Numbered from the stretch's first letter, positions 6,856-64,000 are shown. The stretch is DNA of 64,000 nucleotides from an uncultured Vicinamibacteraceae bacterium (GCA_964636705.1 CAZWUJ010000013.1:25574-89573); one strand, 5' to 3'. A program made the numbers and translations. Notes: generated from the sequence alone by a model not told the origin.

Positions 6856-6890
6856 GGTGGCTCCATCACGCGGCCGCGTTCCGGGACCGG

Positions 6891-12229: not shown

Positions 12230-12462
12230 CCGGAAGGCCCTTGCCAGAGCGGCGGGAACGTGACAAGCTAACCCAGCTACTTTTCTGAGACCTGCCGCTG
12301 ATTCTCGGCGTTCTGCCGAAGCTGAAGCTCCAATCCTCACCAAAGCGGCTATCTACGCGCGCGCGGCTTCATGAGGAAGCTGAGAGGCATTGCCGTCAAC
12401 TTGACAATCTCCTCGGCGCGTTCGCGGCCAATGGCGGCCGAACTCACTGAGAGGACTCACAC

Positions 12463-12666
12463 ATGTCAACCACGACCGGCACGATCAAGCGCATGACGGA
12501 CAGGGGCTTCGGCTTCATCGCCGCACCCGATGGCGTCGAGTACTTCTTCCACCGCTCCGCGTGCACGAGCACGCCATTCGACGCGCTGCGCGAAGGCGAT
12601 AGCGTGACATTTACGCTCGGCCGAGGCCCGAAGGGTCCGCGGGCCGAGAACGTCACCCCGGCCTGA
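12463..12666 (+). CDS. Cold-shock domain protein (CspA family)
   Basis: 67 aa. 'GTIKRMTDRGFGFI' carries the RNP1-like motif and 'EYFFH' is RNP2-like. GAGAGG lies upstream of the ATG. Confidence 0.9.
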   Translation: MSTTTGTIKRMTDRGFGFIAAPDGVEYFFHRSACTSTPFDALREGDSVTFTLGRGPKGPRAENVTPA

Positions 12667-12762
12667 CCGGATCATTCGGATCCGCTCTCGGCGGCCCATC
12701 AGGGTCGCTCACGCCCGCAAGACGCTGCCCGGCGGCTGCCGGTCCGGCTGACGCCGGCCCGT

Positions 12763-14385
12763 TCACTGCGCGAGCAGGAGATAGCAGCCGACCGAGCAGA
12801 CGCTCACGAACACCGCCAGCGCTTTCGCGTGCTTCCAGGGCGTCATGTCCACCGGCGCCGCGCCAGGCTCTGCGGCACGGCTCCGGGCGGGCCGGAGCCT
12901 GGCAGAGACCAGCATGAAAGCGGCCACCGCCACGAAGACGATCGCGAGGAAGTGCAGGAAGTGGATTTCGTGTGTCGTGCCCAACACGCCCTGCAGGAAC
13001 GCCTGCACGGGATCGTCGAACGAGAAGACCATCAGGAAGAACAGGACCGGGCCGCCGACCAGGCCCGCCTTGGCCGCGAACGCCGAGACCCGCGCTGAGA
13101 ACATGCCCAGCAGGATCACCGCAAGCATCGGACCGAAGAACGCCGCGTTGATCGTCTGCAGATAGTTGTACAGGCTGCCCGACGTGTCGAGCATCGGCGC
13201 GACGAGCATCGCGGCCGCCGCGATCGCGATACTGCACGCGCGGCCAGCACGGACGAACTCGCGCGGGGAGGCATCCGGCCGCATGACCGAACCGTAGATG
13301 TCGCGGCAGAACAGCGTGGCGGACGAGTTCAGCACGCTGTTGAATGTGCTCAGCACGGCGCCCACCATGACCGCGGCGAAGAAACCGGTCAGCCAGTCCG
13401 GCAGAACCGCCCTCACGAGCGTCGGGTAGGCCAGCAGGTAGTCCTCGGGCCCCAGCGTGTCCTTGAACATGTGGTAGGCGATCACACCCGGCAGCACGAC
13501 GATGAGAGGGCCCACCAGCTTGAAGCACGCGGCGATCAGGACTCCCTTCTGCCCTTCCTTGAGATTCCTGGCCCCCAGACCCCGCTGGATGAACTGCTGC
13601 CCGGTGCACCAGGCGAAGGCCTGGTTGACGACCATGCCCGTGAACAGGGCGCCGAACGGCAGGAACGAGCCCGGCTCGTCGCCCGTGATGTCGAACTTCG
13701 GATGCTCCTCCACGTACACGGTCTCGAGCCCCGCCCAGGGATTCCCGTTTCCGATCTGGATCAGCGCCAGCAGGGGAATCAGCAGGCCGCCCAGGAGGAA
13801 CCCGACGCCATTGATCGTGTCCGATATCGCGACAGCCTTGAGGCCCCCGAGAATCGCGTAGAGCGAACCCAGCGTTCCGACACCCCAGACGAGGAGCCAG
13901 ATCACCTGCGCCTGGCTCAGGCCGAACGCCTCCTGCAAGCCGAACAGGCTGTCGATGCCGGTGGCTCCGGACAGCAGCACCACGGGCAGGATCGCGAGCA
14001 CGTACGAGAACAGGAACACGCTCGCGGCGATCACGCCGGTGGCCCTGTCGTAGCGGGCGGCAAGGTACTCCGGTATGGTCGACAGGCCCATGCGCAAGAA
14101 GCGGGGCAGGAAGAAGAGCGCGGTTGCGACCATCGCGATCGCTGCGGTCGTCTCCCAGGCGGTGACGGCGATGGTGTGGTTGAAGGCGTCCCCGTTCAGG
14201 CCGATCAGGTGCTCGGTCGAGAGGTTGGTGAGCATCAGCGAGCCGGCAATGACCCAGGCTGACAGGCTGCGGCCTCCAAGGAAGTACGCGTCCCAGGTCG
14301 TCATCCTGTCGTGTCGCGTGCAGGCGTAGGAAACCGCCGCGACCAGCAGGGTGAAGCCCAGGAAAGACACGGTAGTCACAAGCAC
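12763..14385 (-). CDS. Sodium:solute symporter (SSS/SLC5) family transporter
   Basis: 540 aa with about 13 hydrophobic segments. 'AYFLGGRSLSAWVIAGSLMLTNLSTEHLIGLNG' is typical of the SSS N-terminus. Confidence 0.85.
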   Translation of the reverse strand: MLVTTVSFLGFTLLVAAVSYACTRHDRMTTWDAYFLGGRSLSAWVIAGSLMLTNLSTEHLIGLNGDAFNHTIAVTAWETTAAIAMVATALFFLPRFLRMGLSTIPEYLAARYDRATGVIAASVFLFSYVLAILPVVLLSGATGIDSLFGLQEAFGLSQAQVIWLLVWGVGTLGSLYAILGGLKAVAISDTINGVGFLLGGLLIPLLALIQIGNGNPWAGLETVYVEEHPKFDITGDEPGSFLPFGALFTGMVVNQAFAWCTGQQFIQRGLGARNLKEGQKGVLIAACFKLVGPLIVVLPGVIAYHMFKDTLGPEDYLLAYPTLVRAVLPDWLTGFFAAVMVGAVLSTFNSVLNSSATLFCRDIYGSVMRPDASPREFVRAGRACSIAIAAAAMLVAPMLDTSGSLYNYLQTINAAFFGPMLAVILLGMFSARVSAFAAKAGLVGGPVLFFLMVFSFDDPVQAFLQGVLGTTHEIHFLHFLAIVFVAVAAFMLVSARLRPARSRAAEPGAAPVDMTPWKHAKALAVFVSVCSVGCYLLLAQ

Positions 14386-45272: not shown

Positions 45273-45684
45273 GCACGGAATCCCGGGCGCTGGCGAGAGC
45301 CGCAAGGGCCTGCGCCCTGGTCACTGACGGGAATTGGTCGAGGAACTCTTCAAGCGACTCGCCGCCCTCCAGGTAATCGAACAGCGTCCGGGCCGGCACC
45401 CGAGTACCACGAAATACTGGCGTGCCACCGGAAATCTCCGGGTCGCTGTGAACGATCGACTCCGAGACAGTCGGTACGTCGGCCAGCTCCCCGCCGGCGG
45501 CGAACGCAAGACAGGCGCGAATGTCCTCGCGTTCCAGGTCGGGGAAGTCCCGCAGAATGTCGCCCTCGGATATGCCGGACGCCAGGTAGTCGAGCACGTC
45601 GGAGACCGTCATGCGCAAGCCGCGGATGCAGGGCTCATCGCCGCGCTTTCCGGGCTCAATCGTGATCCGGTCCAGGTGCGCCAT
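45273..45684 (-). pseudogene. Tandem DUF433-DUF433 ORF that has lost its stop codon
   Basis: 'ITIEPGKRGDEPCIRGLRMTVSDVLDYLASGISEGDILRDFPDLEREDIRACLAFAA' is followed by 'DPEISGGTPVFRGTRVPARTLFDYLEGGESLEEFLDQFPSVTRAQALAALA'. The frame then runs antisense through the GNAT and PLP genes to 43225. The paralogous remnant at 52180 keeps the stop that is lost here through a 2-nt length difference. Confidence 0.55.
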
Positions 45685-46132: not shown

Positions 46133-47449
46133 TCATTCCCCGGCCGCGTAGATCGTGAGCATGAGTTCTGCTTCGTCGACAAGGCGATATTCCGGCGTTC
46201 TCCCGGACAGTTGTTCACTGTTCTCCAGGATCAGGCGCACGCCCTCGCCGCGCCGGTCCGTGAGGGCGCGGCGGTCGGTGCCGAGCCAGGGAACCTCGGC
46301 CGGCACCGCGCACCTTGCCAGCAGGCTCATGACAACGTCGTTGCGGGTGGACTGCAAGTAGGCGAGATTCTCGACCGTCATTCCGTTCGGGATCGCACCG
46401 GGAGAGTGGAGCTCCAGCCGATTCTCGAACAACTGCAATCTGACTTTGGCCCCGTGAATCGCGTAGTCTCGATGGGCGACAGCATTGACGACGGCTTCGA
46501 ACACAGCCGTCATGTCGAAACACGGGATGTCCCTGCGCCCGAGGTCCTTGACCGCCGCCACCTTCATGTTTCTCGTGACGAAACGGCACGCACCCTCAAT
46601 CTGAGCATCCAGCGGCCCGGTGATGTCGGCGGCATCAAGCTGGTAGGGCGCCCCCGTTGCGTCCGGCCGAATCGCATCACCCCGGTAGGCGACGGCCTGC
46701 ACGTAGGCGTTCGGCAGCCAGCGGCGCGGGTCGCGCGTCCCGATGAGCACGCCAGCTACGGTGGGTCGCGCCATGCCGTCGTCATCCCGGCGCGCCAAGC
46801 CAAGCTTTGCCAGAAACGTCTCCCGATCCTCATCGGAGCGGGGCCCCCTAAAGCGCTCCCAGAGATCCGCGTCCAAGTCGTCGATCCGGGCGTTGGACAC
46901 GATCTGCTCATCAAAGCGGATGAGCCGCGTCTGGCTACGCTGCTGGAATAGCCGCGCCAGATACTCGGGAGACATGACGCGTCGTGCGCTGCCGACGCGG
47001 TACAGGTAGCCTCCGGGGCTCCGGTGCACGAAGAGACTGCGTGGCACGTCGATCCTGATGACCGGCACGTCTTCGCCCGTGGTCGTGGGAAGTTCCAGTC
47101 GCTCGATAGCGGCGGTGAGGGGTGGTTCCACCGAGTCGTGACACAACTCGTGGACGAAGCGCTCGACCGTGTCGAGGCAGTGGAGGGGAATCCCCAGCAC
47201 CTCACGCGTGCGGTCTTCGATGCCCAGAATCAGGACGCCCCCACGACTGTTGGCGAAGGCAGCCAGCTCGTCGGCCAGTGACTCCCGCCGCGGTTCGGAG
47301 ACGCGATCGCCTGTGAAGCGAACCTCCTTGCATTCGAGGAACGAGTCCTCACCCAATCGGATCTTGTCGAGCAGCTCCTTCCGACTGTCAAACACCAGCC
47401 GGCTCCCGTCCCAACCGGCGGTACCGGCGTCCGAACGCCTCGCGGCCAC
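46133..47449 (-). CDS. AlbA_2 (Schlafen-like) DNA-binding domain protein with HATPase_c_4-like C-terminus
   Basis: 'EDSFLECKEV...LADELAAFANSRGGVLILGIED' (AlbA_2) and 'AVFEAVVNAVAHRDYAIHGAKVRLQLFENRLELHSPG'. An alternative GTG start at 47395 overlaps the upstream stop (GTGTTTGA). Confidence 0.75.
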   Translation of the reverse strand: MAARRSDAGTAGWDGSRLVFDSRKELLDKIRLGEDSFLECKEVRFTGDRVSEPRRESLADELAAFANSRGGVLILGIEDRTREVLGIPLHCLDTVERFVHELCHDSVEPPLTAAIERLELPTTTGEDVPVIRIDVPRSLFVHRSPGGYLYRVGSARRVMSPEYLARLFQQRSQTRLIRFDEQIVSNARIDDLDADLWERFRGPRSDEDRETFLAKLGLARRDDDGMARPTVAGVLIGTRDPRRWLPNAYVQAVAYRGDAIRPDATGAPYQLDAADITGPLDAQIEGACRFVTRNMKVAAVKDLGRRDIPCFDMTAVFEAVVNAVAHRDYAIHGAKVRLQLFENRLELHSPGAIPNGMTVENLAYLQSTRNDVVMSLLARCAVPAEVPWLGTDRRALTDRRGEGVRLILENSEQLSGRTPEYRLVDEAELMLTIYAAGE

Positions 47450-50243
47450 CCTCCATCACCCGGCAGATCTCTTCCCGCATCGCTGCGTCCTGCAGGGATC
47501 CCTTCTGGATGACCCGGCACTGCCCGTGAACAAAGTCCAGAGCGTGCAACATCTCGGCGTCGCCGTTCACCACGATGTTGGGGTTGTGCGTCACGACGAT
47601 GATTTGCCGTCGGACCTTGTTCTCCCGGATCTGCCGCACGATCAGGTCATAGATCAGGTGGTTGTCCAGATCGTCCTCAGGCTGATCCAGCACGAGCGGC
47701 TCGCTGCCATGTGCGAGGAGGAAGGCCAGCATCGCGGCTGAACGCTGGCCGGCCGATGCCTGGGTGATGGGGCGAAAGTCCTGCCCATCACCCGCCCGGC
47801 TGTATTCAACGCTCAGGCCGTCCTCGGGGAACCAGGTCAGGAGGTTGTCGAGCAACTCCGGCTTTCGCTCTGACTCCCGCGCGAGATGGTTGTTGAAGTG
47901 GCCGCCGAAGTCGCCGTTGCCTTTGCACGCGCGCGTCAGCCGGTCCTTGAGCGTCGCGATGCGCTGCCCGAGCTCCGTCGCGCGTTGCGAGGGATCGTCG
48001 GGCAGCTTCTTGAGGAGATCCGCCACGATGCCGCCCGTCGGTCGGTCGTTCTCCATGACGAGGATGTCGCCCGTGAACCGATCGTCCAGGACATCGAGGG
48101 CCTCACGCAGCGAACGTTCGATAGCGCGTGGATCGTTGCCGTACATCACGCTGCGGATTCGCACGAAGTCGTTCTGAGACAGTGTCTGCTCCAGGAACTC
48201 ATCCCGGGCGCGACTCACTTCGCGGCGCGCTGCCTCGACTCTCCCCCACTGCAGACGCATCCGGTCCATCAGTTGGTTGCGTTCTTCGCCCATTGACTCC
48301 AGGCGCTTCGTCTCGCTGTCGAGGAGCTGTCGTTCCTGCGCCAGACGACCATACTCACTCGGGTCAGCAACACCTTCCGCACGCAGCGCATCCACGAGGT
48401 TGTTGTAGGCATCGCTCGCTTGCTGCGCAGCCACTTGCCATGCGCTCTCGTTCAAATCCCTGCGTCGTGCCGCTACAGTCTCGCGCAGCTCTTGCGCACT
48501 GCGCCGCATATTCTCGGTGGTGTTGCGCACCGCGGTCGCGAGGCCTTCCACGATCTCGAGCACGCGCCGCTCTTCGTCCACGCTCGTATCGAGCAGATCG
48601 TCGGGCAGGTCCTCAGGCTGCAGCCCTGCGGCAGTTGCTTCGACGCGATCGGCGATAGCGGTCGCCCCACCAAGCTGACGCTCGACCTCCGCGTGCTGAC
48701 GCCGACGGCGACCGTAGGTCGTCAGGACAGTGGAATGCCCGGCCTCCTCGAAACGCTTCAACTTGCGTTCGACGTCCTGCTGACGGACAGCGACGTTGTT
48801 TCGCTGGCCCAGCATTCCTTCTAGTTCGCGGATCTTGGCCCGCGATGCGAGAAAAGCGTCTCGCGCCGCGTTCAGGTTCTCTCGGTGCGCGTCCACGCCC
48901 GCCGCCTGGTCGATCAAGTGCATCAACGCCTGCTGGTTCTCCCCCGAGAGCGCGGCGATCTGCCCCTGGCTGAACAGCCGGAGCGGGAACCGATCCGGTG
49001 TGACGCCCTGAACGGACGAGGGCTTCCAGCCGTCCTCCTGCTGCTCTTCTACCATCACGTCGTTCCCGCCGCCGCTCCATTCGATGCGGTGTCGCACGCC
49101 GTCTCGCATCACGGTCCATCGGATCTTCGTCGCTGTCTCCAATCCTCCTCTGTCCATACGGTGTGTTGGCACGCGATTGAACCGCTCAAAGGTCCGGCGA
49201 GGTTCACTGGCTTCGTCCAGATTCATCAACTCCGGCTCCCGTCGTGCGACGAGCCGTAGTGTATGAAGGACCGTGGACTTGCCTGTACCGCGCCCGCCCA
49301 CCAACGCATTGAGCCACGGGGTGAATGCGAACGTAGCCGGATTGCCGTGACCCATGTACCGCGCGCCTTCGATTTCGATCATTTCAACGAAATGCTCCGG
49401 CAGAACCCACGGGGCGAATGGCTGTGACTCGTCGCTACGTCGAATCGAAAAGCCGTCGCCGTCCAGCAGTGCGAGCCGAAGCCCTCCCAACGACGGCGCC
49501 GCCATCTTCACCCACGTGTAGTGCGATCCGGGAAAGCAAGTCCCGTCAACGCCGGTAGGGTGGTGCGAGTCTGACCCCAGCACCTCCGCCCAGGCGAGCT
49601 TCCGCTGACGATACAGATCTGGCTTCGCGGACCCGCGATCGAGGACCTCCATGGCGAACAGCCCCGGTGTGTCGAGCAATGGCATGAGCACGTTTCCCTG
49701 AAGTTTCCACGCACCCGAGGGTCGGTCGACGTGCGCGAGAATCGGTATGCCCCCCGCCTTGGTAATCGCCTCGGTGACGCCTCGCGGGTCGGCCTCGGCC
49801 ACCGTGTCGCACGCGCCCCGTGTTCCCCGATATCCGACGTCACCGAGCAACGTCGCTATATCGGCAGAAGTCCTGTCCATGTCCAGTATCGCCAGCACGT
49901 GAGTCCCGGTGCTCGCCGTGATCTCCACTCCAGGAAATAGACGCAACGGTCGGAAATCCGGGTGATTCTTGGTCTCCAGTTCGCGGAGTGCATTCTTGAG
50001 CCTGTCGATCCAGTCTCCGGAGTTGTGGTCCGTGACCGCCACGCAATCGATGCCCGCCCGCATGAAGGCGAGCAACCATTCCTCCGGCGAGATCTTGCGA
50101 ACTGCGGTTTGTCCCGCACCCTTGCCGTAGTCGCTGGACGCGGGCGTGTGGGCGTGGAGATCGAACTTCCACCATCGGGCCCCTGGGTAGCACCAGTTCC
50201 GACCGCGATCGGCTTGCGAAGACGGGCTGGAGTTCCCAGTCAT
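47388..50243 (-). CDS. PHP-domain phosphoesterase fused to an SMC/Rad50-like ABC ATPase with a long coiled coil
   Basis: PHP motifs 'FDLHAHTP', 'VTDHN', 'GVEI' and 'ILAHVD'. Walker A 'GGRGTGKST', then about 280 aa rich in heptad-like E/R/L. Signature 'SAGQRS', Walker B 'LVLDQPEDDLD' and 'VVTHNPN'. Confidence 0.8.
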   Translation of the reverse strand: MTGNSSPSSQADRGRNWCYPGARWWKFDLHAHTPASSDYGKGAGQTAVRKISPEEWLLAFMRAGIDCVAVTDHNSGDWIDRLKNALRELETKNHPDFRPLRLFPGVEITASTGTHVLAILDMDRTSADIATLLGDVGYRGTRGACDTVAEADPRGVTEAITKAGGIPILAHVDRPSGAWKLQGNVLMPLLDTPGLFAMEVLDRGSAKPDLYRQRKLAWAEVLGSDSHHPTGVDGTCFPGSHYTWVKMAAPSLGGLRLALLDGDGFSIRRSDESQPFAPWVLPEHFVEMIEIEGARYMGHGNPATFAFTPWLNALVGGRGTGKSTVLHTLRLVARREPELMNLDEASEPRRTFERFNRVPTHRMDRGGLETATKIRWTVMRDGVRHRIEWSGGGNDVMVEEQQEDGWKPSSVQGVTPDRFPLRLFSQGQIAALSGENQQALMHLIDQAAGVDAHRENLNAARDAFLASRAKIRELEGMLGQRNNVAVRQQDVERKLKRFEEAGHSTVLTTYGRRRRQHAEVERQLGGATAIADRVEATAAGLQPEDLPDDLLDTSVDEERRVLEIVEGLATAVRNTTENMRRSAQELRETVAARRRDLNESAWQVAAQQASDAYNNLVDALRAEGVADPSEYGRLAQERQLLDSETKRLESMGEERNQLMDRMRLQWGRVEAARREVSRARDEFLEQTLSQNDFVRIRSVMYGNDPRAIERSLREALDVLDDRFTGDILVMENDRPTGGIVADLLKKLPDDPSQRATELGQRIATLKDRLTRACKGNGDFGGHFNNHLARESERKPELLDNLLTWFPEDGLSVEYSRAGDGQDFRPITQASAGQRSAAMLAFLLAHGSEPLVLDQPEDDLDNHLIYDLIVRQIRENKVRRQIIVVTHNPNIVVNGDAEMLHALDFVHGQCRVIQKGSLQDAAMREEICRVMEGGREAFGRRYRRLGREPAGV

Positions 50244-50299
50244 CCGCTCCCCAAGCTCTCGCGGCCCGCGCCCGCAACAAGCTCTCCGCGCATCGCCAT
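50240..50299 (-). other. Possible 19-codon leader ORF overlapping the PHP-ATPase start (ATGA)
   Basis: ATGGCGATGCGC...GGATGA encodes 'MAMRGELVAGAGRESLGSG'. The first 11 nt and 22 upstream nt are shared with the small ORF at 57444. Confidence 0.3.
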
Positions 50300-51283: not shown

Positions 51284-51499
51284 TCAGACGGCCCTATAGG
51301 AGCGTACGGGCAAGGCGCGGGTTTCGACCGTGGCCAGATCGTGCTTCGCGGCGGCGCCGTCGATATCGAACCCCACGACGTTTCCCTCGGCGTCGAGATC
51401 GACGTTGATCCCGGCGGACACTTCACGTGTTTCCACGCCAGGGCCGGCCTTGAGCTCGAAGTACAGACTGTCGGTTTCGGGGTAGTAGTGAAGCTTCAT
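51284..51499 (-). CDS. DUF2283-domain protein
   Basis: 'MKLHYYPETDSLYFELKAGPGVETREVSAGINVDLDAEGNVVGFDIDGAA'. Confidence 0.75.
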   Translation of the reverse strand: MKLHYYPETDSLYFELKAGPGVETREVSAGINVDLDAEGNVVGFDIDGAAAKHDLATVETRALPVRSYRAV

Positions 51500-51572
51500 G
51501 ACGCATCCCTTCGAAAGCCACGGTCGAAGCACGCATTGTGGATTGTCTCAAAGTCGTCCAGGGTCCGACTGA

Positions 51573-54013: not shown

Positions 54014-55102
54014 CTACAAGGCAAAGCAGAAGTCGTGCTCCTCGAAGCGCGACACCTTCGAGCCGCGAAACACGTTCGCCTGCGTCTTGCCGACTTCGGT
54101 CGTCACGCCATCGTCGACGAGTTGAACGTCGCGCCCCAGACCAAGAGTGAGCGACTGCAACAAGCCGGCGCGAAGTTCCAACTTCTGCAAGCGGCGTCCG
54201 CCGATTCGAATCACTAGCCGTGCGCGTGCCGCCAGCAGAGGCGCCAGCCCCCGCATCGACGCCTGGATGAACGTCCAGTAGTTCTCCGGGTTGTAGTGCC
54301 GGTCATCCCCGCGACCGCGGGGCACGAGCGGCTCGCCGCCCAGAAACCAGAGGCGCAGCCACTGGTCCTCCCGGTAGTTCGTGGTGTCGAGGTACGGCGG
54401 CGAGGTGATTACGTCGGTGACACGGCCCTCAAGGGAGGGGAACGCTGCAGAAACCCGGCGAGCGTCCGCTTGAACGACCACAGCGGAACCATCCGGAGGT
54501 CGGGTCCGAAAGCGGTAATCGAGCATCCTTTCGAGGATTTCGAAGACATCCCGCGGCGGAGGCTTGTACTCCCGCTCAGTCCACCACCGAACCGAGTAGT
54601 CGGGTTTGGTGCTGATCGTTCGCGGCATGCGGTTACTGAAGCAGTTGGGTGATCGGTGGGATTCGCCGTGCAGCGCCCCGAGGCATAGCGCCGCAATGAA
54701 ACGATCGTCCTTCCGATTGCGCCAGTCCAGGACGGAACGCAGATAGCGCACCTGCAACAGCGTTTCCCGATGGAAGCAGAGTTCGAAGAACCGACCGAGA
54801 TCCCCCTGCCACGCGCCGTCGTTCGGCTCGCCGCATCCGCGACGAAGCTCGCCCAGGCGCGCCCGGGCGCCCGACAGCGCGGGCGGATCACCCTTCGCGC
54901 CGGAGATACACACTGCCACTGGATTCAGGTCCGCGCCGGCCGACTCCCGTCCCTGCAACAGCGCCTGAAACACGGTGGTTCCTCGCCCGCTGTACGGGTC
55001 AAAGACGACCCCGTCGTGCGGACTCGCGACAAGGTGCTTCTCGACGAACGTCTCAGGGAACATCGCGAAGTACGGACAGATCGAATGGAATCTATGCCTC
55101 AT
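54014..55102 (-). CDS. DNA methyltransferase (N6-A/N4-C type, motif I before motif IV)
   Basis: AdoMet motif 'VFDPYSGRGTTVFQAL' near the N-terminus and catalytic 'VITSPPYLD' about 190 residues later. The start overlaps the upstream stop (ATGA). Confidence 0.75.
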   Translation of the reverse strand: MRHRFHSICPYFAMFPETFVEKHLVASPHDGVVFDPYSGRGTTVFQALLQGRESAGADLNPVAVCISGAKGDPPALSGARARLGELRRGCGEPNDGAWQGDLGRFFELCFHRETLLQVRYLRSVLDWRNRKDDRFIAALCLGALHGESHRSPNCFSNRMPRTISTKPDYSVRWWTEREYKPPPRDVFEILERMLDYRFRTRPPDGSAVVVQADARRVSAAFPSLEGRVTDVITSPPYLDTTNYREDQWLRLWFLGGEPLVPRGRGDDRHYNPENYWTFIQASMRGLAPLLAARARLVIRIGGRRLQKLELRAGLLQSLTLGLGRDVQLVDDGVTTEVGKTQANVFRGSKVSRFEEHDFCFAL

Positions 55103-56097
55103 GCCGCCGCTCCCGTCCGGCTGCGATAGTCCGAGACCCAGCGCGCGGCCTCCGCCAGCCGATCGTACCCTTCGATCGCAACGCCTGCGTCAACCAACCC
55201 CGCGGCCTCCTCCACGCGACGCGGAACCCGCAACCGGTGCAGCACGTTGCCCATCACGCGAACATCGTCCACGAACTGATTGTCGGCCGTTGCGAACGGT
55301 ACAACCATATAGGGGATGAATTCGGTCACCGGCTGCGTCCCGAACCATCGGCTCTTGAACGCACCCAGATGCCCCTTCAGCGACTTCTCCCTTGCGTTCC
55401 GGCCCGTCGCGACCTGCGCGGCGGCGAGCGGGAAGCCCGGCAGCCGATCGAGGTGCGGGCGGGCGGCAAAGACATCGACCTGATCGTCCTTCGGCAGCCG
55501 GGGCACGCCGGCCTGCGCCTCAACGCGACCGTCGCCGAGCTGCAGCCAGATCTGCTCCAGTTTGTGGAGAAACGGAGAACGGTCCGGCCGCGGAAACCCG
55601 AATGACCACGCATGCCCCTGCACCTCCGCCGCCATGGCCGCAGTTGCGAAGAACTGGAAGTACTCCCGCAGACGTGGCACCTCGGCATCGCCTGGATGCA
55701 GGTCCGAACCCTCGAGTATCGGCGTCACTGCCCGCAGATTGGACAGCACGAGGCTGAGCACATACGCGGTCTGCCCGAACGACTCCTCATTCAACTCGCA
55801 GGTCAGAACATCGCCGCGACCATCGAGCACGAACGGATACGCCGTGCCGAGTGCGTCCCGCCGCGTCTGGATCCGGGACGCGGCGCTGCATACGATTTCC
55901 TCCTCGCCGTCGAACATCTCGGCCTGCACGTCGACGTGATCTTCGGCTGCGCCGAGAGAGGCTGCGTTCGCGAGGTCGGACGTTCGAGCTGTACTGTCGG
56001 CGGCGAAGAAGGCGGTGAGCTCAAGATAGTCGGCGGCCAGATCGACGTCGATCGAAGAGCCGGTTACCGCGTCCGTGGGCAGGTAAAGGGCGAGCAT
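55099..56097 (-). CDS. Unknown 332-aa protein, possible nuclease-fold effector
   Basis: No family recognised. 'PKDDQVDVFAARPH...AAAQVATGRNAREK' loosely recalls a D...(D/E/Q)xK nuclease core, but the lysine is not evident. Coupled to both neighbours by overlapping start and stop codons. Confidence 0.6.
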   Translation of the reverse strand: MLALYLPTDAVTGSSIDVDLAADYLELTAFFAADSTARTSDLANAASLGAAEDHVDVQAEMFDGEEEIVCSAASRIQTRRDALGTAYPFVLDGRGDVLTCELNEESFGQTAYVLSLVLSNLRAVTPILEGSDLHPGDAEVPRLREYFQFFATAAMAAEVQGHAWSFGFPRPDRSPFLHKLEQIWLQLGDGRVEAQAGVPRLPKDDQVDVFAARPHLDRLPGFPLAAAQVATGRNAREKSLKGHLGAFKSRWFGTQPVTEFIPYMVVPFATADNQFVDDVRVMGNVLHRLRVPRRVEEAAGLVDAGVAIEGYDRLAEAARWVSDYRSRTGAAA

Positions 56098-57245
56098 CAG
56101 TCCGACGAACGTGCGTGCCGGCGCTTCTTCGCCATGCGCGCATGCACGGCTTCGGCCGTCTCCTTGATGTCCTCCGCGATGTCAAGGAGTGACTGGTCCC
56201 GCCCGTCGTAGGCTCGCAGCGAGCCGGCTGCGTCCCCGATAGCCTCCCGCGCGCGGAGCAGCGACGCCGTGAACCGCGTGTCCACGGATTCTGTGCTTGC
56301 GTGCGCCTCGTCCAGATCGCCCGTCTGCTTCAGGACGTGTAGCGACTCGGCGTGGACGAGCACTTCACCGAGACGCTTGATGTCAGGGTTCTGCTTTTGG
56401 ACGACCGGCGCCACGTCGTCGGCCTTCGAGCCGTATATCCAGACCAGCACCTGCTTCAGCCGAGGGAGTCTGTCCCGCGGGACCTGATCCGGCGTCGGAT
56501 CATGGCGCGACCACGCGGCTTCCAGACCCAGGTAGTCCATGTACTGAGAGCGCGAGAGCGCCGTGTACAGATGTGAGAAACCGAACTTCGGAGGGTATCG
56601 GTCCTCGATATCGAACAGCCCTTGCTCTCGCGCCTGGTCCAGCACGTAGATGGCCGACACCATGCGTTTGATCGTGTCGTGCCTATCGCCGATGGCCTGC
56701 GCTATCTGTTCCAGGCCGATCCCATTCTCGCGGCCTTTCTGGTACCAGTCCGCCGCAAACCGAGCCTTCGCGTAGGCGTCCCATTTCTGCGGACCGTTGA
56801 TGTGCTTGAAGCCGATGAAGGCGCGAGCCCGTTGCCGGCTTGCGACGGGATACACGGAAACCTCGTCGAGCGTCTGCTGGACCCCGTCGTCGATCTCCGG
56901 AACGGTGATACGCGTGCTCTCAGCGGCTGCGATCCTTCGCACCAGGGCCGGTTCCCGCAGGAGACGCAGCGTTGCAAGCCGCCGGTTGCCCTCCAAGACA
57001 ATCAGCGCGTCATCGTCGGCGTCGTCTTCCATCACGACGAGGGGCTCGATGTCGAGGTAGCCGTTGGCGGAGATTGACTGCAGGAGCTCGTCGAGCTCCG
57101 CCGACCGATAGAGCCGCGCGATGATCCATTCGTCGGACGCATCCGTTGCCTCGCCGACCAGCCGCGGATTCCCCCGGTCCAGCCGCAGCCGCTCGACCGG
57201 AACCTTCGCGGTCGTCTCAAGTACCATGCTCACCCCGCTGTGCAC
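56097..57245 (-). CDS. ParB/Srx N-terminal-domain protein
   Basis: 'RLDRGNPRL', 'NGYLDIEPLVV' and 'LIVLEGNRRLATLRLL' (the ParB GxxR box), followed by a helical C-terminal region. An alternative start lies at 57227. Confidence 0.75.
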   Translation of the reverse strand: MHSGVSMVLETTAKVPVERLRLDRGNPRLVGEATDASDEWIIARLYRSAELDELLQSISANGYLDIEPLVVMEDDADDDALIVLEGNRRLATLRLLREPALVRRIAAAESTRITVPEIDDGVQQTLDEVSVYPVASRQRARAFIGFKHINGPQKWDAYAKARFAADWYQKGRENGIGLEQIAQAIGDRHDTIKRMVSAIYVLDQAREQGLFDIEDRYPPKFGFSHLYTALSRSQYMDYLGLEAAWSRHDPTPDQVPRDRLPRLKQVLVWIYGSKADDVAPVVQKQNPDIKRLGEVLVHAESLHVLKQTGDLDEAHASTESVDTRFTASLLRAREAIGDAAGSLRAYDGRDQSLLDIAEDIKETAEAVHARMAKKRRHARSSD

Positions 57246-57885: not shown

Positions 57886-58371
57886 AGTTGAAGGAGGCCT
57901 TACAAGCTGAGGTCCTGCGCCGCGTTCTTGAAGCCCCGCCGGCATTCCTGGAGCAAATCGTCGTAGGTCTTCTGAATCAAAATGGGCTACGGCGGAGGTG
58001 ATGCTTCCATGGGCCGCGTCACCGGCGGCGCCGGCGACGGTGGGATCGACGGAACGATCCGGGAGGACAAGCTGGGACTGGATGAAGTCTACGTTCAGGC
58101 AAAGAAGTACGCCGACGGAAAGACCGTCGGTGAAGCCGAACTGCGGAACTTTGCGGGGGCCATCGACGCAGCGGGCACGACCAAGGGCGTATTCGTCACT
58201 ACGTCCAGATTCACGGACGCCGCGAAGCACTGCGTGGCGCGCAGTCCGAAGCGGATCGTCTTGATCGACGGGGAGGAACTGGCGCGTCTCATGGTCGAGC
58301 ACGGCGTCGGCGTGCGGCTCAGGGATCGTTACGAGGTCAAGAGGATCGACGAGGACTACTTCGACATGTGA
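57886..58371 (+). pseudogene. Mrr-family restriction endonuclease, N-terminally truncated and frameshifted
   Basis: 'PPAFLEQIVVGLL' is in one frame and 'MGYGGG...GDGGIDGTIREDKLGLDEVYVQAKKY...KGVFVTTSRFT...IVLIDGEELARLMVEHGVGV' is in another. The Mrr N-terminal winged-helix is absent. Confidence 0.65.
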
Positions 58372-59565: not shown

Positions 59566-61713
59566 CTAATCACCGACTCGAAGACGGTGTCGCTCATCAG
59601 CGGCATTCCCCGCACGCAGATCGTCCAGAAACTCCGAGCAAGGATCGACGCCGGTCACCAGTAGCCGGTCGCGTGCACGGGTGCACGCGACGTAGAGCAG
59701 GTGTCGTTCGGTGCCGTAAACCTCCTCGAGATCGGCGTCATCGCCAACGCGTTCGATCCGGGTCTGTAGCGGAATGACCTCGTCGTCGCAGGCGGCTACC
59801 GCGACCGCCCTGAACTCCAGCCCCTTGGCGAGGTGCATCGTGCCGACCGCGACCGATCCGGACACGCCGCCGGAACCGCCGTCGAGCCGCACAGCCCGCA
59901 TATCCGCCGCCTGCACAGCGGAGAGCGCTCGCTCGATCTGCTCCGACGACCTGACGAAGACGCCGATAGCTTGCGGCGCGTAGCCCTCGTCCCGTCGTGC
60001 TCGAAGCCAGTCCGCGATGGCCTCCGTCTCGTCCTCCGGCGAATCGAACGTCCTGACTTCGGGTGCCGGTCCGTTGAACACCGAGACCGTCGCTCCTCGA
60101 TGCTCCGCATCGCCGTCGACGTCTGCCAGCTCGGCCGGCAAGAGGCGGTCGGCCTGACGCCGGATCTGATGCGACGTACGGTAGTTGATCCGCAGCGTAT
60201 GGGATCGCCCGCGCACGTCGACGCCGAGCGCCCTCCAGGAGAACGGCGTCTGGAAGATCCGCTGTCCGAGATCACCGGCAAAGAACAAGCTGTTCGGCCG
60301 GCTCCCACCGAGGGCCGCCAGAAACCGCAACTCTGGGACGCCGACATCCTGCGCCTCATCGATCACGCAGAAGTCGAACGGGGGATGCGCTGCCTCTGTC
60401 ATCTTCGCCGCCACCCGCGCGAACATGCCGGGCTCCGTCAGTTTCCCGTGTTCGGCGAGCGCAGACCGGACCCGCAAGAAGATCGACCAGAGCAACTCCC
60501 GCTGCTTCTCGGCCAAGCGGGTCTTGCGGCCGAGCCGCTGCACGTCGCGATAGTCCTCCCAACTCGCGAGCTGCCAGGCGTCGACCACAACGCTCCATTC
60601 CGTCCAGAGAAAGTGCGCACCGAAACGATGGCCTTCGACCTCGGCTGCCGCTTGCCGGAGCAGTGCCCGTGTCTCTTCGTCCGCCGCCAAGTTGAGGCGG
60701 CCGACATTCGCCGTGTAGAGACGCCGACCGATGTCGCTCATCGAATGCACTTCGAGACGCTCGGCGATCTTCGGCTCGTTCCCGATGAGGCGCCTGAGAC
60801 GCGTCCGTAACGCGCCGGCCAGCGCATCCGAGAAGGTCGCGAGCAGCACGCGGCTCTCCGGATGTGCGCGCGCCAAATGCACTGCCCGATGGAGCGCCAC
60901 GATGGTCTTGCCGGTGCCGGCCGAACCCGAGAGACGAGCCGGGCCGGTGTAGTCCCGTTCGACGAGTTGTCGCTGGGCAGGGTGCAGGAAGACGGTCCAC
61001 TTCTCCCACGGGTAGTCCAGCGCGCGCTCCAGCGATTCCACGTCCGCCATCACCCGGAAGCGGCGCTGCGCATCGGGATGTGCAAACGGATCCGCGCCCG
61101 CTACGGCAGGCGCCGGACGGTCAGGCGCACCGCCGGTCGCAAGCTGCAGGAGCGCCTCGGCAGCCTCGCCCGGCAGGTGATCGGCAAGGTCGAGCAGCGT
61201 GTCCTCGGTCGCCGCCCGCACGTCACCGAGCCACTCGACCGGCACGCCGTAGCCCAGTAGATCGTCGTCCGACGCGCCGGCGAAGATTGCCGTACCCGAC
61301 GCCGTTGGTCCGCCTGCCGCCGCGCCCCGACTGGGCGCCGGGAGGTTCACCTCCACATACCGCGGTACCGGAATCTCACGTACCGTCTCACGGATCTCGA
61401 CGAGTTGGGCGGCGCCTGTCGTCGGATGCCGTTCCAGCCGCCGCCGTTCGGCCCACTGATAGGCGGCGTCGTGATGGTCGACGTAGCAGAGCAGGAAGCT
61501 GGAGGCTGTCCGGTGGACGATCAGTCGGATGTCGCGACTGACCCGAGCGGACCAGAAGTCCTTGTCCTTCGCGCGGTCGACTTGGTGCAGCTTCAGCCCC
61601 GGATGCGCCGGGTTCATCTGCAGGTCGAAAGCCGCGGTCTTGACCGCCTTCTGCTCGTCGCCGGTCAGCTTGGCGAGGCTGTCGGTGAAGGTGTCGGCGA
61701 TGCGGAACTGCAT
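59566..61713 (-). CDS. UvrD/Rep-like SF1 helicase with a RelE/ParE-like N-terminal domain
   Basis: N-terminus 'FWSARVSRDIRLIVHRTASSFLLCYVDHHDAAYQWA'. Helicase motifs 'LSGSAGTGKT', 'CVIDEAQD', 'FFAGDLGQRIF', 'NYRTS', 'TMHLAKGLEFRAV' and 'LLYVACTRARDRL'. The start overlaps the S8 peptidase stop (TGATG). Confidence 0.8.
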   Translation of the reverse strand: MQFRIADTFTDSLAKLTGDEQKAVKTAAFDLQMNPAHPGLKLHQVDRAKDKDFWSARVSRDIRLIVHRTASSFLLCYVDHHDAAYQWAERRRLERHPTTGAAQLVEIRETVREIPVPRYVEVNLPAPSRGAAAGGPTASGTAIFAGASDDDLLGYGVPVEWLGDVRAATEDTLLDLADHLPGEAAEALLQLATGGAPDRPAPAVAGADPFAHPDAQRRFRVMADVESLERALDYPWEKWTVFLHPAQRQLVERDYTGPARLSGSAGTGKTIVALHRAVHLARAHPESRVLLATFSDALAGALRTRLRRLIGNEPKIAERLEVHSMSDIGRRLYTANVGRLNLAADEETRALLRQAAAEVEGHRFGAHFLWTEWSVVVDAWQLASWEDYRDVQRLGRKTRLAEKQRELLWSIFLRVRSALAEHGKLTEPGMFARVAAKMTEAAHPPFDFCVIDEAQDVGVPELRFLAALGGSRPNSLFFAGDLGQRIFQTPFSWRALGVDVRGRSHTLRINYRTSHQIRRQADRLLPAELADVDGDAEHRGATVSVFNGPAPEVRTFDSPEDETEAIADWLRARRDEGYAPQAIGVFVRSSEQIERALSAVQAADMRAVRLDGGSGGVSGSVAVGTMHLAKGLEFRAVAVAACDDEVIPLQTRIERVGDDADLEEVYGTERHLLYVACTRARDRLLVTGVDPCSEFLDDLRAGNAADERHRLRVGD

Positions 61714-64000
61714 CAAGTCTCTATCTCTATCGGCACACCGATCTGGTTCGCGACCTCCGTCCGCAGGTCCACGTTTACGTCTGGTGCACGTATGCTGACG
61801 ATCAGCGCATATCGCGCGGCCTGGTCGTACCTCTCGAGGGCCTGGCGGGTCTTCCACCAGCCCACCGCGGGGTAGACGGCGAGACACCCCCGACTCGCAA
61901 GGTCGGCTGCGCTACCTCGCCAGATGTCGCCATGCAGTGAACCTCGGTGACGGGTCTGCTTTCCAATAAGCCACTCGGGATCGTTGCCGTGCCCGGCGTG
62001 GGTCCCCTCCTCCTCGTTCCGTGCGGCCGCATTGATCCGCGTCCGGAAGTCATCGACCGACTCGTGCGGGCGCTTGACGTCGAAACGGAGACCATGGGAC
62101 TCGTAGCGGTACCGCGAACGCATCCCACGCCGTGACGGGTTCGGCTCGATGAAATAAGACAGGGTGATTCGCATCTCCACCTGCGTTGCTCCGAGGCCCT
62201 CCAGCGCTTCGCGTGGCCAAGGCAGGTTGTAGAGATGCATGTCCCGAAGCTTCGGTTGGTTCGATCCTTCACGCCGAAACGGATGCAGACGCTCCTCGAT
62301 CACCATCGCCAACGAGTTGTCGACACTCCAGAGCGCACGCTCAAGATCTGGAACTCCGAAGCCACAGCGCTGTACCAGATTTCGGTAGTGAGCCTTCGTG
62401 GCCGCGCCGGTTGTGGGCAACGAGGCTCGTCGCATGGCCTCGGTCCACTCCGCCGAATGCACGATCAGAGCGCGGACGGTCTCGGGCCACAACGTCGGAT
62501 AGGCGACCATGATTCGGGCAGCAAGCCGCGCAGCCAGCGCCATCGCCGCGCTCGTCGCGTTGGTCGTAGTGAAGATCCGTTCTGCGGGACGGTAATGCGT
62601 CGTCAGTAGGCTGAGGCTGTCCGCCGTCACTGCCGAGAGCAAGTCCTTGGCCGCATTGCCGCCTTCGAGCACCACGTCCGGCTTCAGCGGCCAGTACTTC
62701 TCCCAGGTAAGCGAGGTGGTGCTGAACGGGCTCAGACCTCCTCGTGGTGCGACCGGTGCGTAGTTTGCTGTGTCGGGCTCAGTAATCCGAACCAGTTCTG
62801 TGAACGCCCCTACCGTCAGTGCATTCCAAGCCTGCGCGGGATCATGCACGCCGTCGGTGTCATTCGAATACGGGTAGTTGCGCCATGCATCTGAATCCTG
62901 GACGTTCCCGGCCGACTGGACAAGCAGGCGCGGACGCTCGCCTGCCGCATCGGCGTCGGCCGCCAGTGCGTCCACGGCTGCCGACCACGCCGACGGGCGG
63001 CCTCGGTCGCGGTCGTCACGAGCCGTAACGGCCATGCCGAATACTCGAGGTCGCCTCGGAGCAGCGATCTCCGGACGCGCGACGGCTTCGACGGTGACGA
63101 AGCCGTGGTGCCGCGAGTCTCCGCCGCCCCCTGGCCCCGGTAGCAGCTTGACCGATTCCAGGCGGTGGTCGAGCACGACGATATCGTTGGCGTCGACAAG
63201 CGTCGTCAGATCCCCGGCAAGTGCGACGCCGGCCATCTGCGTCCCGTGGCCGTGCGTATCGTTCGTGCCCCAACCCGGCTCGACGGTGTGCAGATCTCCG
63301 GGGTCAAGTGCTCGCTGCAGAAATCGGTGACCGCGATTGACTCCTGTGTCGAGCAAACAAACGCGCGGCACCTCGTCAGCATCGGCAGGGAACTGGGTCC
63401 GCGCAAGCAGATCGTCGAGCCATTCCTGCTGCTCTTCGGGCCGCAGGGAGTCGAAGAACTCGGCTGTCTCCTTCGCCCGTCGAAGCTCCGCGATACTGTT
63501 GAGCGTCAGCATCGAGTGCTGCATCTGCTCCAGTGAAGCGGACACCAGTAGCACGGTGCGCTCGGGAAAGACCAACTCGCCTGGAACAAGGCGCATCCCC
63601 TGGGCTTCTGCTTGTCCTCGAAAGGACTCGACTACCGCCTGCCGGTCTCTCCGAACCGGCAGCCACACTTCCCACCAGAGTGAGCCTTCATCCTCTGTCG
63701 GGAACTCCGTAGCCGTGTCGGTCCACAGTGCTCGAAGACTCGCAGCACGAATCTCCTGAATCGCATCGACGAGCTTCCTGTTGTCGCGAGCGCGTCCGAT
63801 GCTGTCCCGCCGTTCTTCCAGATAGTGACGGACGAGCCGCTCGAAGTGATCGAGCTTTCCGTCGGGCACGAAAACGGTTGCGAACGTTCGATTGCCGGCT
63901 CGCCGGACGTTGAGCAGCTCTATCCCAGACCGCTCGCGCGCCAAGCTCTCGAAGGCCGGCTCGATGTCGGGAAAGCTCTGGAACTCGACGCGGAGGCCCA
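61713..64000 (-). CDS. S8 (subtilisin-like) serine peptidase with a large N-terminal domain; 5' end outside the window
   Basis: Catalytic 'CLLDTGVNRGH', 'HGHGTQMAG', 'SAGN' and 'NATSAAMALAA'. The frame stays open upstream of the TTG at 63944 to the window edge. Confidence 0.8.
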   Translation of the reverse strand, partial: GLRVEFQSFPDIEPAFESLARERSGIELLNVRRAGNRTFATVFVPDGKLDHFERLVRHYLEERRDSIGRARDNRKLVDAIQEIRAASLRALWTDTATEFPTEDEGSLWWEVWLPVRRDRQAVVESFRGQAEAQGMRLVPGELVFPERTVLLVSASLEQMQHSMLTLNSIAELRRAKETAEFFDSLRPEEQQEWLDDLLARTQFPADADEVPRVCLLDTGVNRGHRFLQRALDPGDLHTVEPGWGTNDTHGHGTQMAGVALAGDLTTLVDANDIVVLDHRLESVKLLPGPGGGGDSRHHGFVTVEAVARPEIAAPRRPRVFGMAVTARDDRDRGRPSAWSAAVDALAADADAAGERPRLLVQSAGNVQDSDAWRNYPYSNDTDGVHDPAQAWNALTVGAFTELVRITEPDTANYAPVAPRGGLSPFSTTSLTWEKYWPLKPDVVLEGGNAAKDLLSAVTADSLSLLTTHYRPAERIFTTTNATSAAMALAARLAARIMVAYPTLWPETVRALIVHSAEWTEAMRRASLPTTGAATKAHYRNLVQRCGFGVPDLERALWSVDNSLAMVIEERLHPFRREGSNQPKLRDMHLYNLPWPREALEGLGATQVEMRITLSYFIEPNPSRRGMRSRYRYESHGLRFDVKRPHESVDDFRTRINAAARNEEEGTHAGHGNDPEWLIGKQTRHRGSLHGDIWRGSAADLASRGCLAVYPAVGWWKTRQALERYDQAARYALIVSIRAPDVNVDLRTEVANQIGVPIEIET

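Follow-up and report, generated by a model that had tools for sequence, protein, structure and literature searches.

The stretch of DNA considered here, hereafter the window, comprises 64,000 nucleotides (nt) of one strand from an uncultured Vicinamibacteraceae bacterium (GCA_964636705.1 CAZWUJ010000013.1:25574-89573), and the two genes of concern lie side by side on its minus strand, between positions 46,133 and 50,299. The upstream one, gene A, encodes a TrlF-family protein joining a PHP phosphoesterase domain to an SMC-like ATP-binding cassette (ABC) ATPase, and the downstream one, gene B, encodes a prokaryotic Schlafen protein. Part of this is already known: gene A belongs to the annotated TrlF family and the characterised Ppl superfamily, and gene B to a catalogued class of defence-associated Schlafens. 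What appears to be new is that the two genes make up an operon of ancient origin, tightly coupled, widely transferred and often nested in BREX or type I restriction-modification (RM) loci. We read the locus, with moderate confidence, as a horizontally mobile two-gene module directed against phages or mobile elements, in which a member of the Ppl superfamily is coupled to a Schlafen RNase effector.

According to the call of the open reading frame (ORF) and its translation, gene A begins with the ATG at 50243 and encodes 951 amino acids (aa), position 50299 being the stop-to-stop limit of the ORF and not its start codon. The sole identical public protein model (P0001) has 895 aa and begins ~56 residues later (window 50075-50243), a start that would remove the first PHP motif (D28/H30/H32); this public start looks too short, since close homologs of gene A are all ~940-951 aa long and conserve the N-terminus. 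The protein matches NCBIfam NF045780, “TrlF family AAA-like ATPase”, with 558.9 bits (E=3.4e-167; curated cutoff 350), its residues 21-945 aligning with model positions 2-944 of 944, so that the “TrlF-like AAA ATPase” label mentioned in an earlier note on this DNA is the right one. The Ppl equivalog NF042955 is matched with 496.8 bits, below its curated cutoff of 1000, and the PADLOC Ppl model PDLC02208 is matched with E=2e-122 (residues 21-944 on model positions 4-892 of 894); identity to Ppl proteins annotated by the Prokaryotic Genome Annotation Pipeline (PGAP) is 26-30%. Judging from these alignments, gene A is a full-length but distant relative of Ppl, a single-gene defence protein reportedly first described and named by Gao et al. 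in 2020. Ppl, a kinship that the earlier note had missed, is an experimentally validated single-gene defence system with PHP and ATPase domains (PMC11482910). Homologs of gene A are abundant (>3400 at E<=1e-10 among the candidates scored). PGAP applies the TrlF name to the plasmid and E. coli homologs of gene A; it is an annotation label, silent on any partner, for a family mixing partnered and partner-less members. Literature searches on the name TrlF returned unrelated uses only, with no paper defining TrlF or its function, and no characterised non-defence role of the family was found, such a role being what the earlier note would have counted against its reading. Sequence, profile and fold searches of the PDB gave no solved Ppl or TrlF structure. 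Two TrlF homologs of 1453-1454 aa (P0042 and P0079; 62-64% identical) bear a ~500-aa N-terminal extension with an ADP-ribosylglycohydrolase domain (PF03747), which may reflect either fusion with a third enzymatic activity or an error of gene calling.

The PHP motifs quoted in the earlier note for this 951-aa protein are all present in the translation, namely DLHAHTP (residues 28-34), VTDHN (70-74), GVEI (105-108) and ILAHVD (168-173). The ligand motifs D28/H30/H32, D72-H73, E107, H115, H171/D173 and D225/H227 are made of residues invariant or at least 90% conserved in 56 homologs. The PHP family of Pfam is not matched in gene A at E<0.01; NCBIfam gives weak PHP-type matches (CehA/McbA metallohydrolase, 1.3e-10; RNase RNM, 5.2e-6), and in Foldseek searches the PHP domain of the predicted structure matches RNase AM (7ug9, 9etk), BAD_1165 (3o0f) and EndoQ, with E-values from 1e-6 to 1e-4. 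With HxH, DH, E, H, H and DxH ligands on a modelled PHP (TIM-like) fold, gene A is, as far as sequence and model indicate, a member of the PHP superfamily. The ATPase motifs follow: Walker A GGRGTGKST (316-324), signature SAGQRS (830-835), Walker B/D-loop LVLDQPEDDLD (850-860) and H-loop THNPN (885-889). Pfam recognises the C-terminal lobe of the ATPase only (AAA_21 at 814-891, 6.3e-11), SMC_N remaining below its cutoff (31.6 bits versus 40). The AlphaFold2 (AF2) model, with a predicted local distance difference test (pLDDT) score of 78, consists of a PHP domain, an ABC head and, at 437-688, a ~250-aa helical hairpin, somewhat shorter than the ~280 aa proposed earlier for the coiled coil, whose helices span 437-540 and 556-688. 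Head and coiled coil find their best Foldseek matches in JetC, SMC, MukB and Rad50, and also in RecN. The fusion of PHP and SMC-like ABC ATPase read earlier in this DNA is thereby supported jointly by motifs, NCBIfam, AF2 model and Foldseek.

Several details set this ATPase apart. Q854 replaces the usual catalytic Glu of ABC ATPases (Walker B LDQPE), the H-loop His being H886; D-Q-P-E (residues 853-856, window ~47676-47687) occurs in all TrlF and Ppl sequences examined, and LDQPE is invariant in the 56 homologs. This natural Walker B equals the experimental E-to-Q “ATP-trap” mutation of ABC ATPases. Such a Gln would fit an ATPase that senses nucleotides better than one that hydrolyses them fast. 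No Cys occurs in the sequence of the coiled coil, and a zinc hook is therefore absent. Genes for Mre11/SbcD or a kleisin were found neither among the window neighbours of gene A nor in the neighbour clusters of its homologs. The conserved motif at the coiled-coil apex was considered as a marker of partner docking and rejected, because partner-less TrlFs also keep it.

Gene B encodes 420 aa, and its product is identical to a database protein (P0121). Its ORF is listed from the GTG at 47449, and the start supported by orthologs is the GTG at 47395. Pfam assigns SLFN_AlbA_2 to residues 16-141 (1.3e-14; 55.1 bits versus a cutoff of 25.3) and HATPase_c_4 to residues 315-413 (2.8e-16; 59.7 bits). 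E16, E21 and K23, invariant in 63 orthologs, fit the Ex4(E/D)xK catalytic motif of prokaryotic Schlafens (pSlfn) and SLFN11. In Foldseek searches the full-length AF2 model (pLDDT 81) matches 3LMM, a protein from structural genomics (4e-19), and also the N-domains of SLFN14/11/12/5/13. The histidine-kinase (HK)-like region gives only weak Foldseek matches to His-kinase/PDK catalytic domains (E ~1e-3); its N-box-like E300 and N304 and the H308-R-D-Y311 stretch are invariant across orthologs, and its G1 position reads SPG, without Asp. The C-terminal part of the HATPase_c_4 match corresponds to a winged helix-turn-helix (wHTH), with helices H375-379 and H384-397 and strands E402-406 and E410-416 in the model. 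In databases gene B is annotated as “HTH transcriptional regulator” or “RNA/DNA-binding protein”. The AlbA_2 and HATPase_c_4 assignment of the earlier note stands in Pfam, whereas the DNA-binding role that it gave to this partner does not fit as well: with its Ex4ExK motif intact, gene B is better read as a predicted Schlafen RNase, for which tRNA or RNA endonuclease activity seems plausible. Prokaryotic Schlafens are reported to be anti-phage tRNases with an Ex4(E/D)xK active site, and Slfn-HisKinase and Slfn-HisKinase-HTH are their commonest architectures, together 53% (bioRxiv 10.1101/2025.07.24.666596). Proteins combining Schlafen, minimal His-kinase and wHTH have been surveyed in BREX loci of at least 1017 taxa (PMC12839542, NAR 2026 survey). 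That such proteins were already catalogued as defence-associated had also escaped the earlier note. The features of both genes are collected in Table 1.

Table 1. Genes, domains and related loci discussed in the text; coordinates refer to the window unless preceded by the identifier of a homolog locus
Feature	Coordinates	Strand	Basis or remarks
Gene A, TrlF-family (Ppl-superfamily) PHP phosphoesterase + SMC-like ABC ATPase, 951 aa	47388..50243	-	ORF, NF045780, PADLOC Ppl
PHP metal-dependent phosphoesterase domain, residues ~21-280	49404..50183	-	motifs, homolog conservation, Foldseek
ABC head N-terminal lobe, residues ~284-436; Walker A G316-T324, Q-loop-like SQGQ (Q426)	48936..49394	-	sequence, AF2, Foldseek
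Antiparallel coiled-coil insertion, residues ~437-688; apex LQPEDLPDxLFD (541-552)	48180..48935	-	AF2, conservation
ABC head C-terminal lobe, residues ~689-951; SAGQRS, LVLDQPEDDLD, THNPN	47391..48179	-	Pfam AAA_21, motifs
Gene junction GTGTTTGA	47388..47395	-	gene B GTG start overlaps gene A TGA stop, 8 nt
Gene B, prokaryotic Schlafen (AlbA_2) - histidine-kinase-like - wHTH protein, 420 aa	46133..47395	-	Pfam, P0121, Foldseek
Schlafen/AlbA_2 nuclease domain (predicted), residues ~1-155; E16-x4-E21-x-K23	46931..47395	-	motif, Foldseek
Linker + GHKL/histidine-kinase-like domain, residues ~156-370	46286..46930	-	conservation, weak Foldseek
C-terminal wHTH, residues ~371-420	46136..46285	-	AF2 secondary structure
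DUF433 gene, toxin-antitoxin-like; two DUF433 matches in one long ORF call	45300-45684	-	family match
DUF2283 gene, toxin-antitoxin-like	51284-51532	-	family match
Type II methyltransferase	54014-55102		
Unclassified gene, overlaps PD-Lambda-5_A-like gene	55099-56097		
PD-Lambda-5_A-like gene	56097-57245		
Type IV methyl-directed restriction endonuclease fragment, 129 aa, C-terminal half only	57982-58371		
NERD/UvrD-like (GajB-like) helicase	59566-61911		
IetS-like subtilase, runs past window end	61713-63998		
Deep-clade pair, E. coli IncC plasmid pNDM102337	L084:5365-9152		
Deep-clade pair, Yersinia ruckeri plasmid	L085:4386-8140		
Extra Schlafen-HK paralogs	L019:10813-14085; L009:1573-2778 and 12096-13908; L011:12535-13236; L005, L048 ~6400-7650		

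The overlap of the gene B start with the gene A stop, already seen in the earlier note and measured here as 8 nt from GTG 47395, implies translational coupling. A scan of one genome per species yielded at least 539 gene A loci; the survey used the 80 best-scoring ones, with 44-74% identity, and ORF calling in these homolog loci was crude. They are spread over Acidobacteriota, Gamma-, Beta- and Alphaproteobacteria, Binatia, Latescibacterota, Chloroflexota, Actinomycetota, Spirochaetia, Gemmatimonadota, Bacteroidota, Verrucomicrobiota, Nitrospirota and Myxococcota. A gene B ortholog (53-86% identity, tblastn) lies directly downstream of TrlF in 71/80 loci, and two of the nine loci without it end at contig ends. 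Both genes are complete in 61 loci, and there they are spaced by -8 nt in 23, +1 in 17 and -11 in 7, these three values accounting together for 47/61 loci, and the others fall within 15 nt. Clustering of all neighbouring ORFs left gene A and gene B as the only conserved genes of the neighbourhood. The pairwise-identity matrices of TrlF and partner are correlated (r=0.79, Mantel p=0.001), the partner being the more conserved of both (median identity 60% versus 51%). The two-gene unit proposed earlier is thus borne out by the neighbourhood survey, and the sequence comparisons establish gene A and gene B as translationally coupled, co-inherited and co-evolving across many phyla, with both predicted catalytic centres under strong purifying selection in the clade of the window. 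Besides, the closest relative of the window pair comes from a Thermoanaerobaculia metagenome-assembled genome (MAG), with 72% identity for TrlF and 86% for the partner, and sponge-associated or marine MAGs (Poriferisodalis, Poriferihabitaceae, Entotheonella, Binatia, Latescibacterota) contribute many of the 80 closest homologs.

These figures bear directly on the first alternative to a coupled module, namely two independent single-gene defence systems that are adjacent and transferred together with neither physical nor regulatory coupling. Ppl indeed defends as a single gene and some prokaryotic Schlafen fusions do likewise, reports of Schlafen-HK-wHTH proteins in BREX loci do not mention a PHP-ATPase, some TrlFs exist without a partner or its remnant, and defence genes cluster generally. 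Such independence is nevertheless unlikely, given the fixed order and orientation, the starts and stops that overlap (-8/-11) or abut (+1), and the correlated evolution just described; furthermore, the pair is kept between clades that are ~21% identical while no other neighbour is conserved, and unrelated adjacent defence genes usually shuffle.

In a neighbour-joining (NJ) tree built from uncorrected alignments, with annotated Ppl proteins as the root, partner-less TrlFs are interspersed with the partnered ones (E. coli IncF, P. aeruginosa megaplasmids, K. michiganensis, and loci L014, L022, L050, L069 and L074), a distribution that points to an ancestral pair with repeated loss; no partner remnants were found in the partner-less TrlF loci. 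An ancestral TrlF-Schlafen pair lost repeatedly is the simplest reading that the tree suggests. The PGAP-annotated Ppl genes on Vibrio and Pantoea plasmids stand alone, without such a partner, and a search for canonical Ppl in E. coli genomes by DNA similarity returned TrlF-annotated genes only.

The partner gene itself is variable in number and integrity in some loci. Additional, divergent Schlafen-HK paralogs (28-55% identity) adjoin the TrlF-linked one, with up to three in tandem in L019 (Table 1). Insertions of 1.4-2.7 kb interrupt the partner gene in L015:11130-13854, L029:11043-12452 and L005:11913-14381, and in L015 the split halves overlap by ~8 residues, as after a target-site duplication, all of which suggests disruption of the Schlafen gene by mobile elements in these three loci.

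The pair is also kept in a deep TrlF clade comprising IncC plasmids, 38 complete E. coli genomes and plasmids of Yersinia ruckeri and Pseudomonas avellanae, whose proteins are 21-22% (TrlF) and 28-31% (partner) identical to those of the window. The IncC locus L084:2399-13169 is a single type I RM operon with the gene order hsdR-trlF-slfn-hsdS-prrC-hsdM, in which the 371-aa “AAA family ATPase” is PrrC (PADLOC 5.3e-142), and the trlF-slfn-hsdR arrangement recurs in 38 complete E. coli genomes. The IncC/Yersinia proteins carry catalytic substitutions, TDHN to TNHN and DSH to DAK in the PHP domain and Ex4ExK to Ex4QxK in the partner; the pair being kept all the same, its core function may be sensing or regulation and not the work of two nucleases, and, going by these residues, the IncC/Yersinia pair is possibly a catalytically dead, sensor-only version.

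The same substitutions feed the alternative that gene B is a sensor or regulator instead of an effector, be it a wHTH/nucleotide-binding adaptor that brings TrlF to a nucleic-acid signal or holds it back, or a protein controlling transcription of the operon, with a Schlafen fold that binds and does not cleave. The loss of the second acidic residue in partners that remain paired, the C-terminal wHTH, the database names quoted above, and the higher conservation of the partner, as expected for recognition of an invariant ligand, would all agree with it. The invariance of E16, E21 and K23 throughout the clade of the window argues for retained catalysis, however, and characterised Schlafens bearing Ex4(E/D)xK are nucleases; moreover, gene B is downstream and coupled, whereas the usual regulators of defence systems are upstream or divergent. 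A purely regulatory gene B is, for these reasons, improbable.

Regarding the genomic surroundings, to the left of the pair lie ordinary genes with a GC content of ~0.69 (type II topoisomerase subunits, NUDIX, MatE, a pyridoxal-phosphate enzyme and GNAT), and from ~45.3 kb onward GC falls to 0.60-0.67. Besides the toxin-antitoxin-like genes of Table 1, small ORFs and a GNAT also lie in this low-GC region beside the pair. The type IV restriction endonuclease fragment is probably a pseudogene. The window copy thus sits in a lower-GC defence island, and the defence setting claimed in the earlier note holds both for this flank and for homolog loci inside BREX and type I RM operons; the opposite, a housekeeping context without the partner, which that note had named as the outcome that would undo its reading, was not what the homolog loci displayed. 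No tRNA genes were found in the window, and a scan for promoters and terminators gave nothing exceeding shuffled expectation.

Recurrent neighbours of the 80 loci were typed by Pfam and PADLOC scans and counted by phmmer. The BREX genes PglX (14), BrxL (10) and PglZ (9) stand out, and L076 holds a clean overlapping operon pglX-trlF-slfn-pglZ-brxL; HsdM (8), HsdR (5) and GmrSD (4) represent RM systems, and PLD/SNF2 helicases and systems of DUF499 and DUF1156-type methylases also recur. As a raw count, at least 36/80 loci have a member of 12 RM/BREX seed families no farther than 8 kb away. In E. coli IncF, the copies lie after a type I-like helicase and an N6 methylase. The TrlF family is found on many conjugative plasmids, and its distribution is patchy across phyla. 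No full-length match to gene A was found in 50,697 phage records, and 2.9 M viral contigs contained only 7 distant, partner-less relatives, a near-absence from phage genomes indicating that the module is not typically phage-borne.

At least 9-14 loci have the pair between pglX and pglZ, and it also lies within type I RM operons, including the hsdR-linked form of the 38 E. coli genomes; on these grounds both proteins might be accessory subunits of BREX or type I RM, a “backup” firing upon inhibition of the host system as PrrC and PARIS do, devoid of autonomous activity. We hold this to be very unlikely, since no BREX or type I RM gene adjoins the window copy, only the 36/80 loci counted above have such a family nearby, and the Burkholderia and Yersinia plasmid copies stand apart from these systems. 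A housekeeping DNA-repair machine analogous to SbcCD/Mre11-Rad50, with PHP replacing the Mre11 nuclease, was rejected as extremely improbable on distribution and context: the likeness to Rad50, RecN and SMC heads with a coiled coil and the PHP proofreading/repair exonucleases of PolX and Pol III notwithstanding, the family is patchy across phyla with 44-74% identity between distant lineages, travels on conjugative plasmids, occupies a lower-GC island and variable neighbourhoods dominated by RM/BREX genes with no conserved repair or replication neighbours, and has in Ppl a relative that is a demonstrated defence gene.

The coupled two-gene module remains the reading we prefer, and its parts deserve different degrees of confidence. 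That the locus is a defence module is highly probable; that TrlF is specifically coupled to the Schlafen is a tentative proposal, drawn from analogues and carrying less than an even chance. Secondary accounts describe Ppl as an ssDNA (single-stranded DNA) 3'-5' exonuclease inhibited by nucleoside triphosphates (NTPs) on both its PHP and NTPase domains, and activated by 3'-OH ends that phage homing endonucleases produce (PMC12904381), the underlying work being Xu et al., Mol Cell 2026, as cited in PMC13434339. By extension from these accounts of Ppl, bound NTPs would keep TrlF inactive, its DQPE Walker B acting as a nucleotide sensor rather than as a fast motor; upon phage infection, NTPs would be depleted and 3'-OH DNA ends exposed, a TrlF dimer would engage those ends, and its PHP domain would degrade ssDNA in the 3'->5' direction. 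The anatomy of the locus, together with PARIS and RloC/PrrC, suggests in turn that the Schlafen partner may be bound to TrlF in a stoichiometric complex, and that the same event might release or allosterically activate it. The active Schlafen would then cut tRNA or other RNA and stop translation, adding an abortive-infection arm on top of the DNA-degrading one, with the HK-like and wHTH domains serving perhaps as the part that binds nucleotides or nucleic acids, or as the docking part. One could go further and propose, speculatively, a guard-type complex in which an SMC-like, NTP-gated sensor of DNA ends with a PHP exonuclease controls a Schlafen tRNase in trans, the IncC/Yersinia form being a derived, sensor-only version; this is a doubtful, if attractive, possibility.

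Several observations weigh against the coupled module. The IncC/Yersinia pair persists despite its substituted PHP and Schlafen motifs. Neither canonical Ppl nor several of the TrlF genes have a partner, and yet they function or are at any rate maintained, so that TrlF is not strictly dependent on it. The Ppl mechanism reaches this analysis through secondary citations, and Ppl is only 26-30% identical to gene A. The proposed RNA target is an extrapolation, as are the trigger and the binding of nucleotides to the HK-like domain. Finally, BREX and other loci also hold Schlafen-HK-HTH proteins on their own, and both genes could be independent co-travellers.

The significance of the pair lies in the fact that, databases and literature regard Ppl as a system of one gene and Schlafen-HisKinase-HTH proteins as effectors that stand alone, whereas the TrlF family, which makes up a large branch of that superfamily, would ancestrally be a two-gene operon that reaches clinically relevant IncC plasmids. 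If both proteins act together, annotation of defence systems would improve, because current tools would call only “ppl”, and the pair would offer a testable case for the regulation of the commonest bacterial Schlafen class, the combination of DNA-directed and RNA-directed effectors in one module, and a simple bacterial model for the activation of Schlafens by DNA signals. If the guard-type complex were true, sensing of DNA ends or NTP depletion would be wired directly to translation shutdown; the pair would be a bacterial counterpart of human SLFN11, linking DNA damage and ssDNA to tRNA cleavage, and a third backup of BREX and type I RM against disabling phages, besides PrrC/RloC and PARIS.

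As to precedents, neither the pSlfn study (bioRxiv 10.1101/2025.07.24.666596) nor the BREX survey (PMC12839542) mentions an ATPase/PHP partner gene, and full-text literature searches combining Schlafen, PHP, ATPase and phage gave nothing relevant. The TrlF-Schlafen pairing appears undescribed, though the ABC ATPase classification of the Aravind laboratory (Krishnan et al. 2020, cited for “Schlafen-linked systems”) may list the dyad; the earlier note's statement that the pairing lacked a functional description stands in the literature searched.

Among the known systems, Rad50-Mre11/SbcCD and Wadjet JetC share with gene A an ABC head split by an antiparallel coiled coil. The coil of gene A is, however, much shorter (~250 aa in total) and has neither hinge nor zinc hook, its Walker B reads DQ and not DE, and its nuclease is a fused PHP domain instead of Mre11/SbcD or JetD, with no kleisin or KITE partners. 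RloC combines a Rad50-like coiled coil, a DNA-dependent ATPase and an anticodon nuclease activated by DNA breaks, and PrrC is embedded in type I RM operons (PMC3458546, PMC3874168, PMC2610378). In both an ABC-type NTPase governs a tRNase, and the IncC hsd operon holds both prrC and trlF-slfn. In contrast, RloC and PrrC carry their nuclease as a fused domain of HEPN type, and a zinc hook is present in RloC, whereas the TrlF system has a separate putative Schlafen RNase, no zinc hook, and an ATPase with its own PHP nuclease domain.

PARIS also consists of two genes, an ABC-type ATPase (AriA) and a tRNA-cleaving nuclease (the TOPRIM protein AriB), often in BREX or RM loci, and the C-terminal lobe of gene A weakly matches AriA (PADLOC, 1.1e-10; PDB 8v46, 1e-4). 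AriA belongs, however, to the OLD family and has neither a PHP domain nor a long coiled coil, its effector is a TOPRIM and not a Schlafen protein, and the trigger of PARIS, the DNA mimic Ocr, is not implied for TrlF-Schlafen.

The pSlfn class Slfn-HisKinase-HTH shares with gene B the Ex4ExK Schlafen domain, the minimal HK-like domain, the wHTH and the association with defence islands and BREX; the tested pSlfn that proved protective are, on the other hand, DUF262 and Ig-like fusions encoded by single genes, whereas the presumed sensor is here a separate, co-translated protein. Lastly, Ppl has the same full-length layout as gene A, an N-terminal PHP domain followed by an ABC-type NTPase with a helical insertion, and both share LDQPEDDLD, the (T/S)H(N/S)-loop followed by VVNGDAE, and a C-terminal MEGG..AF; gene A differs in its longer coiled-coil apex and, while Ppl is a stand-alone gene, in being encoded with a translationally coupled Schlafen partner.

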